In this document: in pieces, positions 6,073 through 60,333 of the stretch
Position numbering within the stretch: position 1 is the first letter of the stretch
How the letters are laid out: each line of letters opens with the position of its first letter
Source of the DNA: Minisyncoccota bacterium
GTDB taxonomy: Bacteria; Patescibacteriota; Minisyncoccia; Phycocordibacterales; Phycocordibacteraceae
Assembly: GCA_018062765.1 (NCBI GenBank)
Contig: JAGORR010000001.1
Span: 282,173-346,172 of the forward strand
Direction of reading: 5' to 3'
Length of the DNA: 64,000 nt
The notes under the pieces: generated by a model
Told to the model about the DNA's origin: nothing
Database searches by the model: none
The model's input: only the letters and a program-made list of their open reading frames with translations
Translations under genes and position numbers: made by a program

Positions 6073-7860
6073 ATGCAAAAGCAAACGCGTTCATGGACGC
6101 GCCGGACGTTTGGCATCTATGCAGCGGAGGCCGCACGGCACCCCGTGGCGTTCTTCTTCGTGCTCCTCGGCACGTTCTCCTTGCAGGGAGCAATGCTTCT
6201 TGCGCCCCTCTATCTCCGGAACTTCTTTAACCTGCTTGTCACCGAGTCACCCACAGAAGAGGTGATGGCGGCGATATTCTTTACGCTCGGACTCATTGCG
6301 GGCGCGTACCTGCTTGAATGGGCGTCGCGTCGCATCTTCACCTTCAGCATCATCCAGCTTGAGACGAAGGTAATGGCGAGTCTCTATGACCGTGCATTCG
6401 GGTACCTGGTGCGGCACTCCTACCACTTCTTCTCAAGCCAGTTTGCGGGAACGTTGACGCGCCGCGTATCGAAGTTCGCGCACTCTTTTGAGACGGTGTT
6501 TGACGCCATCATGATGCAGTTCTTTCCGACGGCGCTCTTTGTATTCGGTGCCGTCACTATCCTGTACTTCAGGAACGCCACCATCGGCCTCATGCTTGGC
6601 GGTTGGGTCGTGCTTTTTATCGTGGTGCAAATAGTCCTGATGCGCATGCAGCAGCCCTTGCGGCGTGCTCGCGCGGACGAGGATAGCCGGACGGTGGGAG
6701 CGCTTGCGGACGCGGTCTCGAACCAGTCCACCATCACACTGTTCTCGGGAGTCGGGCATGAAGTGTCACGCTTTAGGAATGCGGTACGCACGTGGCAGAA
6801 GGCGGTCGTGCGGGTATGGGTTGCTGACGAGTACGCTTGGTCGGTGCTCGGGTTACTCATGGCCGGTATCGAGATTGCTGTTCTCTATGGCGCGGTGATT
6901 TATTGGCAGCAGGGATTGCTTACTATTGGTGATTTTGCGCTCATACAGGCGTATCTCCTTACCACCTTCGATCGGCTCGTGATGATTAATCGCGACCTGC
7001 GACGCTTTAACGAATCTTTGGCCGACGCAGGCGAGATGGTCGAGATACTCGAGACGCCGCTTGATATCAGTGATGCAAAGAGCGCACACAAACTCAATAT
7101 CCTTAAGGGAAGCATCGAATTTAAGGATGTTGATTTCAGTTTCGTCCCGGAGCGACCGCTTCTCTCCAATTTCTCACTCAGTGTCGCAGGAGGAGAGAAG
7201 GTGGCACTTGTGGGGCCTTCTGGCGCCGGCAAATCCACAATCACGAAGCTCATTCTCCGTCTCTATGATGTTGTCGGCGGCGAGGTCATGATTGACGGAC
7301 AGGATATTCGCAAGATGACGCAGGAGAGCGTGCGAGATGCTATCGCATTCGTGCCGCAGGAACCCATCCTCTTCCATCGCACGCTGATGGAGAATATTCG
7401 CTATGGCAGACGTGACGCGACTGACGAGGAAGTCATCGCCGCCGCTAAGGAGGCGCACTGCTATGACTTCATTATGGCAGCGCCCGAGCAGTTTGAGACG
7501 TTTGTGGGGGAGCGTGGTATCCGGTTATCTGGCGGCGAGCGTCAACGCATCGCGATAGCACGCGCCATCCTCAAGGACGCGCCTATCCTCGTGCTTGACG
7601 AGGCGACCTCCTCCCTGGATTCCGAGTCTGAGGCCTTGATACAGGATGCGCTCGCAAAGCTTATGCAAGGGAAGACGGTTATTGCGATAGCGCACCGGCT
7701 CTCCACCGTGATGAAGATGGATCGCATAGTCGTCATAGAGGACGGAAAAGTCGCGACCTCGGGTACGCATGACGAGTTGGTGCGGCACGAAGGCGGACTC
7801 TACAAGAAGTTGTGGGAGATACAGGCCGGCGGCTTCATCACCGACGACACCACGCCATAG
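6073..7860 (+). CDS. ABC transporter, fused permease/ATPase (MsbA-like exporter)
   Basis: Six-TM N-domain, Walker A GPSGAGKST, ABC signature LSGGERQRIAIARA, Walker B ILVLDEATS. Confidence 0.85.
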   Translation: MQKQTRSWTRRTFGIYAAEAARHPVAFFFVLLGTFSLQGAMLLAPLYLRNFFNLLVTESPTEEVMAAIFFTLGLIAGAYLLEWASRRIFTFSIIQLETKVMASLYDRAFGYLVRHSYHFFSSQFAGTLTRRVSKFAHSFETVFDAIMMQFFPTALFVFGAVTILYFRNATIGLMLGGWVVLFIVVQIVLMRMQQPLRRARADEDSRTVGALADAVSNQSTITLFSGVGHEVSRFRNAVRTWQKAVVRVWVADEYAWSVLGLLMAGIEIAVLYGAVIYWQQGLLTIGDFALIQAYLLTTFDRLVMINRDLRRFNESLADAGEMVEILETPLDISDAKSAHKLNILKGSIEFKDVDFSFVPERPLLSNFSLSVAGGEKVALVGPSGAGKSTITKLILRLYDVVGGEVMIDGQDIRKMTQESVRDAIAFVPQEPILFHRTLMENIRYGRRDATDEEVIAAAKEAHCYDFIMAAPEQFETFVGERGIRLSGGERQRIAIARAILKDAPILVLDEATSSLDSESEALIQDALAKLMQGKTVIAIAHRLSTVMKMDRIVVIEDGKVATSGTHDELVRHEGGLYKKLWEIQAGGFITDDTTP

Positions 7861-31141: not shown

Positions 31142-31229
31142 CGGAGAGGTGGCTGAGTGGTCTAAAGCACTACCTTGGAAAGGTAGCGTCTGGGAAACTG
31201 GACCGCGAGTTCGAATCTCGCCCTCTCCG
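31142..31229 (+). tRNA. tRNA-Ser (anticodon GGA), long variable arm, CCA not encoded
   Basis: GGAGAGG acceptor, D-arm GCTGAGTGGTCTAAAGC, anticodon loop cTTGGAAa, T-arm GCGAGTTCGAATCTCGC. Confidence 0.85.
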
Positions 31230-36182: not shown

Positions 36183-36959
36183 CTATGTGAGGAACGAGGT
36201 CTTGGGGTCATACTTCTCGTGGTATGGCGCATCGATGAAATCGAGCGCTACCGCAAGGTCGGCCTCATGAAAGGCAGTGAATCGGCCCTGCGCATCCCAT
36301 TTGCCCTTTCCCACATCATGAAGGTAGCGGCGACCGTCGAACACCGCGATGTCACCAGGCTCGATGTCGACTGTCCGCACCGTAAACCCGCGAGCAATCA
36401 TGCGCGACGCCACCGTGTGTGCCGTGAGTGCGCGAGGGTCCTCCCCCTCCTTCGCGACTGCGCGCGCAGCTTCCTCTATCGGGGTATCCGCGTATCGAAA
36501 CGTGCGCGCGATGTATGCAGCGACGTTCATATAGATTTGCGGATTCTCGCCAGGGAAGTCACTGAGCGAGCTTCCCGGCCAGTCGAAATGGAAGTTCGAC
36601 TGCTCAACATCGGTCCCCGGGTGAGTGCTCGAAGCGCGCGCCTCGTCGAATTTAAGCGCGCGAAGCATGATGCCAGAACCCCGAAGCCCCTGCTCGATGC
36701 TTTCGACGAGCGTGGTCGTAGCATGGGCCACGTGGCGCAGATGCTCTCGCTGGGAAGCGGATAGGGGTCGCGCTAGGTCCGTACGTCTCTCGCCGCGAAG
36801 CGTGGTGAGTAGTTCCTTGTTCCGCATTTCGCGCATCTCTCGTATGACAACCGAGGCGTTCGGCGAGAAGTAGAAGTTCGTCGCACGAATTACATGGATG
36901 CCCTTACTGAGGTCGAGCGCACGAATGTCTACCGGCCAGCTATGGGTAATCACAGGCAT
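36183..36959 (-). CDS. Hypothetical protein (no recognised domain). The ORF extends to a GTG at 37052; an ATG at 36959 is the more likely start.
   Basis: Coding-like composition, 258 aa from MPVITHSWPVD. Confidence 0.45.
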   Translation of the reverse strand: MPVITHSWPVDIRALDLSKGIHVIRATNFYFSPNASVVIREMREMRNKELLTTLRGERRTDLARPLSASQREHLRHVAHATTTLVESIEQGLRGSGIMLRALKFDEARASSTHPGTDVEQSNFHFDWPGSSLSDFPGENPQIYMNVAAYIARTFRYADTPIEEAARAVAKEGEDPRALTAHTVASRMIARGFTVRTVDIEPGDIAVFDGRRYLHDVGKGKWDAQGRFTAFHEADLAVALDFIDAPYHEKYDPKTSFLT

Positions 36960-37038
36960 AAGGTACTCCTTCTTGGATGAAACTGAAATAATTATGCAAT
37001 ATTTATCGAATATACGCAAAGAGGGGCCAGGGGCGGCA

Positions 37039-37074
37039 ATGAGAAATGCCACCGTAGGGTGGCATTTCTCATTA
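37039..37074. promoter_or_regulatory. Perfect 16-bp inverted repeat with 4-nt loop in the upstream region of the 36183..36959 gene
   Basis: aatgagaaatgccacc gtag ggtggcatttctcatt. Not followed by a U-tract on either strand. Confidence 0.4.
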
Positions 37075-37184
37075 GTTCCGGGACCAGGGCGATAAGCCGG
37101 GTTCTGTCGATTGTCGCGGCGATTTCCGCGACTCGAACGATCATCTATCTGGGATGATGCTTGCGCATCACCTCGAGCGGCGCT

Positions 37185-37282
37185 CCGCGCACCTTTCTAC
37201 GTTCGATGGGATTCCAACCGCGGTACGGCCGATACGGGCCATGCGAAGCTAGTCTCTGCGTCGAGCGCAAGAAGGTGCGCGG
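37185..37282. repeat. Palindromic repeat module A (98 bp) with ~21-bp imperfect terminal inverted repeats
   Basis: ccgcgcacctttctacgttcgatggg...tcgagcgcaagaaggtgcgcgg. The ends are inverse complements (17/21). An inner helix cguucga/ucgagcg is also possible. Confidence 0.6.
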
Positions 37283-37434
37283 CACGGCCTTGCATCGGGG
37301 TAAGGATTTAGCCGTTTCATTCCTGCCTTGCGGCAGGCCCATTCCGGAAACCGGAATTCGTAGCCTTTCGGCGTCCGACGTTTCTGCTCGCACCTCGCGC
37401 CTTTCGGCGGACGGGGATTACCCGCTACCTTTCT

Positions 37435-37531
37435 CCGAGCACCTTTCTACGTTCGAGAGATACCTTGGCTTCGATGCCCAGCTAGGGCATATAGACGTAG
37501 GGTAGTTACACAAACGCACAAAGGTGCTCGG
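37435..37531. repeat. Palindromic repeat module B (97 bp): shares the terminal arms of module A with a different core
   Basis: ccgagcacctttctacgttcgagagataccttggcttcgatgcccagctagggcatatagacgtag...aaaggtgctcgg. Nested inverted repeats ctacgt/acgtag and atgccc/gggcat. Confidence 0.55.
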
Positions 37532-37548
37532 CGATGTCCGGACTTTCC

Positions 37549-37647
37549 TCCGCGCACCTTTCTACGTTCGACGGGATTCCAACCGTGGCATAGCCGATGT
37601 GGGCCATACGAAGCTAGTCTCTGCATCGAGCGCAAAAAGGTGCGCGG
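37549..37647. repeat. Palindromic repeat module A' (99 bp), roughly 90% identical to module A (by eye)
   Basis: ccgcgcacctttctacgttcgacgggattccaaccgtggcatagccgatgtgggccatacgaagctagtctctgcatcgagcgcaaaaaggtgcgcgg. Confidence 0.6.
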
Positions 37648-37818
37648 CGATCGTCTTGCCTGGTCCAAGGATATAGTACCACAAAAAGGCAGTTTTGCCA
37701 GGTTCATCGACTACACTACGACACAAAAATCGCTTTCAACAGAGACTGCTCCCGCAGCTCAGCACGCCGAGTTATACTTATCGCCATTACTGGGAAGCTA
37801 AGGAGAGAGTTACGACAC

Positions 37819-44178: not shown

Positions 44179-44249
44179 GCGGGTATGGTTTAGTGGTAGA
44201 ACGCGACCTTCCCAAGGTTGAGTCCCGGGTTCGATTCCCGGTACCCGCA
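44179..44249 (+). tRNA. tRNA-Gly (anticodon CCC)
   Basis: GCGGGTA acceptor, anticodon loop tTCCCAa, T-arm CCGGGTTCGATTCCCGG. Closely resembles the E. coli tRNA-Gly(CCC) architecture. Confidence 0.85.
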
Positions 44250-44829: not shown

Positions 44830-44901
44830 GCCCTCATAGCTCAATGGATAGAGCAATCCCGTCCTAAGGGAAAGATCTGGGTTCGATTCCTGGTGGGGGC
44901 A
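44830..44901 (+). tRNA. tRNA-Arg (anticodon CCT)
   Basis: GCCCTCA acceptor (two G-U), anticodon loop gTCCTAa, T-arm CTGGGTTCGATTCCTGG. Confidence 0.8.
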
Positions 44902-45667: not shown

Positions 45668-45743
45668 GCTTGGATAGCTCAGTTGGTAGAGCACATCCCT
45701 GAAGAGGATGGGGTCGGCGGTTCGAGCCCGCCTCCAAGCACCA
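45668..45743 (+). tRNA. tRNA-Phe (anticodon GAA), CCA encoded
   Basis: GCTTGGA acceptor, D-arm TAGCTCAGTTGGTAGAGCA, anticodon loop cTGAAGa, T-arm GGCGGTTCGAGCCCGCC, ...CACCA. Confidence 0.9.
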
Positions 45744-56093: not shown

Positions 56094-56169
56094 TGGTGCG
56101 CGGTATAGGACTTGAACCTATGACCCTCTCAACGTCAATGAGATGCTCTACCAACTGAGCTAACCGCGC
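56094..56169 (-). tRNA. tRNA-Val (anticodon GAC), CCA encoded
   Basis: Minus-strand transcript GCGCGGTTAGCTCAGTTGGTAGAGCATCTCATTGACGTTGAGAGGGTCATAGGTTCAAGTCCTATACCGCGCACCA. Confidence 0.9.
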
Positions 56170-59985: not shown

Positions 59986-60057
59986 TGACCCCACGGGGAA
60001 TCGAACCCCGATTTCAGCCGTGAAAGGGCCGTGTCCTAACCGTTAGACGATAGGGCC
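59986..60057 (-). tRNA. tRNA-Glu (anticodon TTC)
   Basis: Minus-strand transcript GGCCCTATCGTCTAACGGTTAGGACACGGCCCTTTCACGGCTGAAATCGGGGTTCGATTCCCCGTGGGGTCA. Confidence 0.8.
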
Positions 60058-60246: not shown

Positions 60247-60333
60247 GGAGAGGTGGCAGAGTGGTCGAATGCGCCAGTTTCGAAAACTGGTATGGGGGAA
60301 ACCTCATCGGGAGTTCGAATCTCCCCCTCTCCG
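60247..60333 (+). tRNA. tRNA-Ser (anticodon CGA), long variable arm
   Basis: GGAGAGGTGGCAGAGTGGTCGAATGCGCCAGTTTCGAAAACTGGTATGGGGGAAACCTCATCGGGAGTTCGAATCTCCCCCTCTCCG. Confidence 0.85.

Follow-up and report, generated by a model that had tools for sequence, protein, structure and literature searches.

Three paralogous hairpin modules at helix tips of a predicted class-A RNase P RNA from a Candidatus Paceibacterota bacterium

The stretch of DNA analysed here, to which we refer as the window, comprises 64 kb of the genome of a Candidatus Paceibacterota bacterium, belonging to the Candidate Phyla Radiation (CPR), and corresponds to positions 282,173 to 346,172 of contig JAGORR010000001.1 (coordinates below are counted from its first nucleotide). 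Within the window, an intergenic gap of 859 bp (36960-37818), whose length had been underestimated as about 770 bp in a first-pass annotation of the sequence, separates an open reading frame (ORF) of 258 residues from a TPR gene. Among the candidates proposed for this hairpin-dense region was one long structured non-coding RNA, and it is this proposal that has proven right: we are almost certain that the region constitutes a single gene, rnpB, which is read from the minus strand and whose product is a predicted class-A RNase P RNA, the ribozyme responsible for the trimming of tRNA precursors. The gene extends from about 37666 to 37080 (~587 nt, with ends placed by the pairing of helix P1) and contains three related hairpin modules, termed A, A' and B, which together account for 293 of the 587 nt and hence for half of the RNA. 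ORFs called across the region are artefacts of its palindromes, as had already been recognised. The proteins encoded on either side match the metagenome-assembled genome GCA_017991435.1, listed by NCBI as a Candidatus Pacebacteria/Paceibacterota bacterium (Patescibacteria). The same intergenic sequence is found, with 100% identity, in the NCBI assembly and in two Logan assemblies built independently from other runs, and it is therefore not an assembly artefact.

The assignment is based on a comparison with Rfam and on the mapping of individual helices. In an Rfam scan, advised in the first-pass annotation, where no named RNA family had been recognised, the region matches RF00010, the family of bacterial class A RNase P RNAs, at 37080-37485 of the minus strand (67 bits, E 5.5e-20). 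This match, which carries the canonical 3' end ACAGAACCCGGCUUAUCGCCCUGGUCC, is returned in E-value mode only, while the default gathering scan of the window reports seven tRNAs and nothing else. When the minus strand is read, the true P4 5' strand, P1 and P2 are located upstream of the match. Helices were mapped by hand, and their pairing was then confirmed in a scripted check; all of them are formed by the minus-strand RNA. The 5' strand of P1 (GGACCAGGC, 37658..37666) pairs with CCCUGGUCC at 37081-37089 in eight of nine positions, and the 5' strand of P2 (GACGAUC, 37649..37655) pairs with 37136-37142 in seven of seven. The long-range helix P4, which is built from the conserved strands GGAAAGUCCGG and ACAGAAnnCGGCUUA, is likewise present with all seven pairs. 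Its 5' strand, corresponding to conserved region I (CR-I; GGAGGAAAGUCCGG, 37538..37551), pairs with 37094-37100 and is invariant in all orthologues, and its 3' strand, corresponding to CR-V (ACAGAACCCGGCUUA, 37093..37107), fits the Rfam consensus, with ACAGAA and CGGCUUA being invariant in the orthologues and two intervening bases that vary, one of them with compensation. Short stretches that had earlier been taken for degenerate fragments of the module arms (acctttct, actttcct) belong to this conserved core, where they are part of the P4 5' strand GGAAAGU and of the AGAAAGGU stretch leading into P7.

The specificity domain is equally well defined. All pairs of the region encompassing the P7 5' strand, P8 and P9 (37398..37429) were verified and are 100% paired across the orthologues. 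Four of four pairs are formed in P7, five of five in P8 and four of four in both P9 and P10. Two additional perfect hairpins, which had been noted between the modules, are present as described and correspond to P13 (AUUCCGG-UUU-CCGGAAU, attccggaaaccggaat, 37341..37357; seven of seven pairs, named from its position in the specificity domain) and P14 (CCUGCC-GCAA-GGCAGG, cctgccttgcggcagg, 37322..37337; six of six pairs with a GNRA loop). P5 forms four of five pairs, P15 (37287-37289 with 37179-37181; three of three pairs) closes module A, and P18 (37153..37172) is a hairpin of eight out of eight pairs with a GCAA tetraloop, of which seven covary across the orthologues. A P19-like hairpin (GUCGCGG-AAAUCG-CCGCGAC, 37113..37132; seven of seven pairs), named by its position only, is located between the 3' strands of P2 and P4. 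P12 is short and imperfect, and P11 is without a clean assignment. Thus, the catalytic-domain helices P1, P2, P3, P5, P15 and P18 were all found in canonical order with verified pairing, P7, P8, P9, P10 and the class-A hairpins P13 and P14 of the specificity domain are perfectly paired, and the core helices P1, P2, P4, P5, P7-P10, P12-P15 and P18 are canonical. We have also considered a class B RNase P RNA, which is defined by P5.1 together with P10.1 and P15.1 and by the absence of P13 and P14, and rejected it: the RNA does contain a P5.1-like hairpin, but P13, P14 and P18 are found as well, and the best Rfam match is to class A. The P17/P6 pseudoknot could not be assigned in the window or in its relatives, and a clear GGU of the L15 motif, which binds the 3'-CCA of tRNA, was not seen in the strand 3' of P16 (GGAGCGCC). 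Neither P6/P17 nor the GGU is universal in class A. Both are described as often missing in RNase P RNAs of the CPR (Lui et al., 2021; PMC8172020).

Further support for the assignment is provided by related genomes, six of which carry a minus-strand rnpB of ~350-430 nt at the same position. These orthologues measure 352 nt in locus L005 (133 bits in Rfam), 425 nt in L007 (121.5 bits), 351 nt in L011 (116 bits), 349 nt in L008 (112 bits) and 429 nt in L009 (91.6 bits), and the one in L006 ends at a contig edge (101 bits). None contains the modules, and five of the six exceed the Rfam threshold (101-133 bits), with L009 falling below the gathering score because of a 108-nt expansion of its own. 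The gene order RNR-rnpB-TPR-MurJ-LepA, with rnpB on the minus strand, is complete in the window, L007 and L008, and partial in L005, where the upstream gene has no Pfam call, in L009, and in L011, where two extra genes precede LepA; the TPR gene downstream shares no more than 64% identity with its homologues. RNAalifold regains the core, with compensation in 39 of 87 pairs. The structure mapped by hand, with P1 and P4 included, shows 93.6% pairing over six RNAs, compared to 36-43% for slid partners, and it contains 32 covarying pairs, a number that is reached in none of 500 shuffles. Covariation is found in P2 (100% paired, three covarying pairs), the base of P3, P5, the base of P16 and P18, and P4 is 100% paired in the six orthologues with one covarying pair. 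The core of the window sequence is 62-72% identical to the orthologues, which share 62-77% identity among themselves, and this divergence, which is no greater than among the relatives, argues against a pseudogene. Synteny combined with covariation had been suggested as a means to distinguish a structured RNA from dispersed repeats; the former is found in the rnpB core with its 32 covarying pairs, whereas dispersed copies of the modules were not found in the ~83 kb of genome searched.

We now turn to the modules, which as RNA are all in the same orientation. Module A' (37550-37647) is a 98-nt rod-like hairpin forming helix P3, module B (37435-37531) is a 97-nt hairpin between P5 and P7 at a P5.1-like position and module A (37185-37282) is a 98-nt hairpin forming P16. 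That three modules with inverted arms occupy these positions had been noticed by eye and is corroborated by a repeat search of the window, by a unique 18-mer and by folding. In the repeat search, A and A' are part of a 101-nt direct repeat (37183-37283 versus 37548-37648) of 90% identity, in agreement with the initial estimate, and every module is bounded by inverted arms of 22-24 nt with a complementarity of 82-88%. The 18-mer GCACCTTTCTACGTTCGA is found a single time per module and at no other place of the window; with up to three mismatches, the only further match is an inverted arm, and four or more matches were obtained in none of 100 shuffles. The repeats do not constitute clustered regularly interspaced short palindromic repeats (CRISPR), as was concluded before, because they are ~100 nt long, palindromic and irregularly spaced at 365 nt. 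The folding of every module is far better than that of shuffled sequence (z-scores of -3.4 to -7.9), with A' (102-nt stretch 37548-37649, minus strand) displaying a minimum free energy of -58.6 kcal/mol at a z-score of -7.9. The minus strand of each module folds at least as well as the plus strand, and clearly better in A' (-58.6 versus -43.5) and B (-50.3 versus -43.2). The basal stem is perfect over 17 bp in A' and over 12 bp in B.

Of the 98 positions of modules A and A', 10 differ, each of them by a transition. In the RNA, the stem pairs of A' are all preserved (31 Watson-Crick and 8 G.U), with U-A, U.G or G.U at the divergent positions, whereas A contains three C.A mismatches, so that the differences are not the classical compensatory pairs that had been suspected. 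The restriction to transitions, the full pairing of A' and the better folding of the minus strand point to a constraint on the RNA strand. Module B shares the ~22-bp arms and basal stem with A and A' but contains a different core. The description of this core as unrelated holds, its identity of 54% to the core of A/A' comparing to 49 ± 3% in shuffles. The possibility that it is a diverged copy of the A core was rejected, since 65 of 500 shuffles reach the observed value. The 3' strand of the arm is the same in all three modules over ~22 nt except for one position, which is compensated (as read by hand, pair 4 is C-G in A and A' and A-U in B), and the 5' strand varies with changes that mostly keep pairing. 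The three rods are therefore paralogous. The module 3' arm GUAGAAAGGUGC (37433-37456 and 37548-37571, RNA sense) resembles the native core motifs directly after it, which are GGAGAAAGGUAGC before P7 and GGAGGAAAGUCC of P4, and it is because of this resemblance that cmscan mis-aligned a module arm to P4; it might hint at an origin of the arm by local duplication of core sequence. A 17-nt stretch inside the 5' end of the 258-residue ORF (GTCGAGCGCACGAATGT, 36912-36928) is 88% like the module arm GTCGAGCGCAAGAAGGT, which could be due to chance or could be the remnant of a fourth module.

In the alignment with the relatives, the modules are located exactly at the sites of short hairpins. A' occupies the same alignment columns as P3, which in the relatives comprises ~20-25 nt, B takes the position of a P5.1-like hairpin of 12-27 nt (4-12 bp) and A that of a P16 hairpin of ~13-20 nt. 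Instead of representing a family of small structured RNAs, as had also been considered, the modules are thus helix tips of a single RNA, in which their flanks form P1, P2, P4, P5, P7 and P15. A P5.1-like hairpin between P5 and P7 is found in otherwise class-A RNAs of the sampled relatives L005, L007, L008, L009 and L011. Some of these contain long hairpins of their own, namely a 64-nt P16 in L007 and a branched P5.1 expansion of 108 nt in L009, from which we conclude that expansions have occurred repeatedly at the P5.1-like and P16 sites in the clade. Homology of the long P16 and the P5.1 stem of L007 to modules A and B, an idea raised by visual inspection, was dropped, as in local alignments 315 and 145 of 1000 shuffles, respectively, reach the observed score, and the P5.1 expansion of L009 shows no significant similarity to the modules either. 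Compared to the sampled relatives, the repeated module thus appears to be specific to this organism.

To find copies outside rnpB, we have built a covariance model from the three modules and have searched it in the window, in 12 loci and in 10-kb extensions past both window edges. In the window, the loci of the relatives and the flanks (with ~83 kb of the genome being covered), this model detects only the three known copies. A match of 21 bits at 1195-1270 of the minus strand was rejected, as it is located inside a 507-residue ORF and only its GC-rich ends fit. Exact-arm scans of 185,579 representative genomes, among which the source genome is evidently missing, and of 241 million JGI metagenome records yielded isolated, chance-like matches without partner, and a scan of the 2.9 million viral contigs of IMG/VR returned no match. 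The 18-mer arm matches in loci L001, L013 and L014 were judged to be chance, since they are without an inverted partner and extend in identity by only 0-5 nt; by eye, those in L013 and L014 look like coding sequence, and the one in L001 is located upstream of an ORF. The match in L001, a metagenome-assembled genome (MAG) of Proteobacteria, extends over 23 nt (6359-6381, identical to the A' arm GCACCTTTCTACGTTCGACGGGA), a somewhat surprising length for what probably is chance; the ORF beside it is, by eye only, ArsC/low-molecular-weight-phosphatase-like. No target-site duplications are found at the modules, whose flanks differ between copies, and the bases that are shared outside, namely a 5' GCC and a 3' (G)GAG, belong to the native sequence, as they are also found in the relatives.

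On both sides, rnpB is accompanied by candidate transcription signals. A perfect 16-bp hairpin with a 4-nt loop (37038..37073, minus strand), a 100% complementary inverted repeat, follows 7 nt past the rnpB 3' end. It is without a U-tract and may act as terminator or as stabiliser or protector of the 3' end. Upstream, the sequence TGgTACTAT (37673..37681, minus strand), which was identified by eye, is a possible extended -10 element of rnpB, in which case transcription would start at G37666, the first base of P1. A scan for consensus two-hexamer promoters and for terminators found nothing in the region and did not call the 37038-37073 hairpin. The 258-residue ORF (36183-36959, minus strand) directly follows rnpB in the same orientation. 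L007, L008 and L011, the relatives with an identified upstream flank, lack it, and RNR directly abuts rnpB in them. The protein contains no Pfam family or recognisable domain, and among 5.8 billion proteins it has a single distant homologue (P0126, 340 residues, 37% identity), suggesting that the ORF is a lineage-specific insertion (ORFan). The seven tRNA genes of the window are located at 31143-31229, 44179-44249, 44830-44901, 45668-45740, 56097-56169, 59986-60057 and 60247-60333, and two of them are long (87 nt) and probably belong to class II. Just outside the start of the window, the same genome encodes proteins that match cohesin, dockerin and Big domains (L015, 16018-19511). The contig of the relative L011 encodes COX1/COX2-type haem-copper oxidase subunits (1-1566) a few kb away from its rnpB; genes of the respiratory chain are uncommon in CPR genomes.

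With respect to the origin and fate of the rods, we hold with moderate confidence that they are paralogous helix expansions, which were copied within the gene and are kept in the mature RNA. In such a scenario, the short hairpins P3, P5.1-like and P16 would each have been lengthened to a ~98-nt rod, with copying occurring intragenically by template switching or gene conversion between hairpins. The rods would remain in the mature RNA as expansion segments directed away from the active site and would be neutral or mildly stabilising, rather than mobile. We favour copying within the gene because the copies are found only at helix tips of one gene, because the native micro-homologous flanks (GCC...(G)GAG) are common to all three sites, and because no copies were found elsewhere and no duplications at the ends. 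Several points speak against the described account, both with respect to the identity of the gene and to the fate of the modules. The gene scores below the RF00010 gathering score of 100 bits, and the cmscan alignment mis-assigns the 5' third of the RNA because of the ~100-nt insertions, with the 5' third of the model being forced into module B. The strand, the ends and the persistence of the modules in the mature RNA are predictions, and the search of the own genome has covered ~83 kb out of at least 638 kb (~15%). Moreover, three near-identical arms of ~22 bp invite mispairing between modules, a cost that is unexplained by pure neutrality, and the 10% divergence between A and A' beside an invariant 3' arm hints at either a sequence-specific constraint or ongoing conversion.

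As an alternative, which we regard as unlikely, the rods could resemble the intervening sequences (IVSs) of ribosomal RNA. RNase III would then cut the basal duplexes and remove the rods to leave RNase P RNA fragments that are held together non-covalently. The rods do replace helix tips, their near-perfect basal duplexes of 17-24 bp have a length that is accepted by RNase III and, in line with the sporadic distribution of IVSs, the closest relatives lack them. Insertions are common in CPR rRNA genes, and most of them are reported to be missing from mature transcripts (PMC9297842, citing Brown et al., 2015). Excision of all rods would, however, leave two fragments of ~18-19 nt (RNA positions 1-19 and 118-135) with nothing but P1/P2 and P4/P5 to keep them in place. 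Such an assembly would be fragile for a ribozyme that, as in other bacteria, presumably relies on just one small protein partner, and a literature search gave no fragmented bacterial RNase P RNA.

No more probable appears the insertion of a mobile palindromic element, similar to miniature inverted-repeat transposable elements (MITEs) or repetitive extragenic palindromic (REP) sequences, on three separate occasions at tolerant sites of rnpB. The modules are small and non-coding, their 22-24-nt arms resemble terminal inverted repeats, and the family would consist of two copies that are 90% identical and a third whose equal arms enclose a different core. The presence of a genomic repeat family inside rnpB is documented by the cyanobacterial STRR (Vioque 1997, NAR 25:3471, cited in PMC2858038), and about 85% of the genome lies outside the ~83 kb of our search. 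Conversely, neither the covariance model nor the arm pattern has revealed another copy in these ~83 kb, the public collections contain only chance 18-mers, target-site duplications are missing and the shared flanking bases are native. Three insertions in 587 nt with none in the surrounding 83 kb would amount to an extreme target bias, and all copies are located exactly at helix tips. Of the nest of MITE-like elements that was initially envisaged, the inverted arms are the only feature in favour.

We have also entertained the speculative and quite improbable proposal that the rod is either a hitherto undescribed type of expansion-segment module that copies itself and spreads from helix tip to helix tip in structured RNAs, or a selected, triplicated docking arm for a partner of a remodelled CPR RNase P, possibly the 258-residue ORFan, with the invariant 17 nt of the 3' arm as recognition site. 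Taken on its own, a triplicated docking arm, in which the invariant 3' arm CGAACGUAGAAAGGUGC would be a protein or RNA recognition site or would mediate oligomerisation and the rods would be selected parts of a modified holoenzyme, is in our opinion very doubtful. It would account for a 3' strand that is identical in three copies over ~22 nt, except for one compensated position, for a 5' strand whose drift mostly preserves pairing and for the lineage-specific ORFan, absent from the relatives, that directly follows rnpB in the same orientation. The invariance is explained just as well by gene conversion, though, the closest relatives contain no module, the ORFan is without recognisable domain and has only one distant homologue, and the three C.A mismatches in module A suggest a relaxed constraint. 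Finally, a decaying pseudogene, with rnpB broken by insertions and RNase P supplied otherwise (e.g. by a protein-only enzyme), would be in line with the sub-threshold Rfam score but can practically be dismissed, since all conserved core elements are intact and paired, insertions are restricted to helix tips, the core has not diverged beyond that of functional-looking orthologues and a promoter-like -10 and a 3' hairpin are in place.

Through this identification, a locus that looked like a novel RNA or repeat becomes an annotated essential gene, which standard pipelines miss in this genome, and the recovery of rnpB matters for completeness checks of CPR MAGs. It also provides a clean example for the growth of a small ribozyme, in which one hairpin at three tolerant tips makes up half of the RNA, with the empty-site states preserved in relatives and two of the three sites expanded there independently (the P5.1-like site in L009 and P16 in L007). 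If the rods are retained, the molecule would, to our knowledge, be among the longest bacterial RNase P RNAs and offer a natural system to study the origin of expansion segments and their folding hazards outside the ribosome; if they are excised, we would know of no earlier fragmented bacterial RNase P RNA.

In comparison to known systems, the RNA shares with class A of RF00010 the helices P1-P5 and P7-P15 (with P11 lacking a clean assignment) and P18, the canonical P4 strands and the GNRA loops of P14 and P18, but it differs by its length of 587 nt compared to ~350-430 nt in its relatives, by the 293 nt contained in three paralogous rods and by the unassignable P17/P6. The hairpin between P5 and P7 is reminiscent of P5.1 in the class B RNAs of the Bacillus type, although the remaining RNA is class A and the hairpin is a feature of the clade that has here grown to 97 nt. 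With MITE- and REP-like elements, the modules share a small size, the lack of coding capacity, imperfect terminal inverted repeats of ~22 nt and the existence of several related copies, whereas they differ by the lack of target-site duplications, by the absence of dispersed copies in the data searched and by their location in the same orientation at the helix tips of one gene. The STRRs of heterocystous cyanobacteria, which reportedly consist of heptamers arranged in tandem in P12 and also occur dispersed in the genome, similarly place a repeat within a peripheral helix of a functional bacterial rnpB; they contrast with 98-nt hairpin modules at three different helices and no copy found outside rnpB. 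Like the IVSs and expansion segments of 23S and 16S rRNA, the rods are extended stem-loops at tolerant surface helix tips with a sporadic distribution among relatives, but their host is an RNase P RNA instead of an rRNA, with three paralogous copies in one small RNA. A literature search of incomplete coverage has revealed no precedent for IVS-like, MITE-like or repeated insertions in rnpB and no report of one module at three helices. The closest resemblance is to the RNase P RNAs of other CPR bacteria, which often score below Rfam cut-offs and contain large helix extensions or lack helices (Lui et al., 2021; PMC8172020). They share with the RNA described here the CPR host, sub-cut-off detection, extended helices and the need for manual refolding, but differ in that single helices are extended or missing (e.g. 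P15), with no module repeated at three helices being described in the text consulted. While diverged CPR RNase P RNAs with extended helices have thus already been published, the finding of a single module three times within the same ribozyme appears to be novel.

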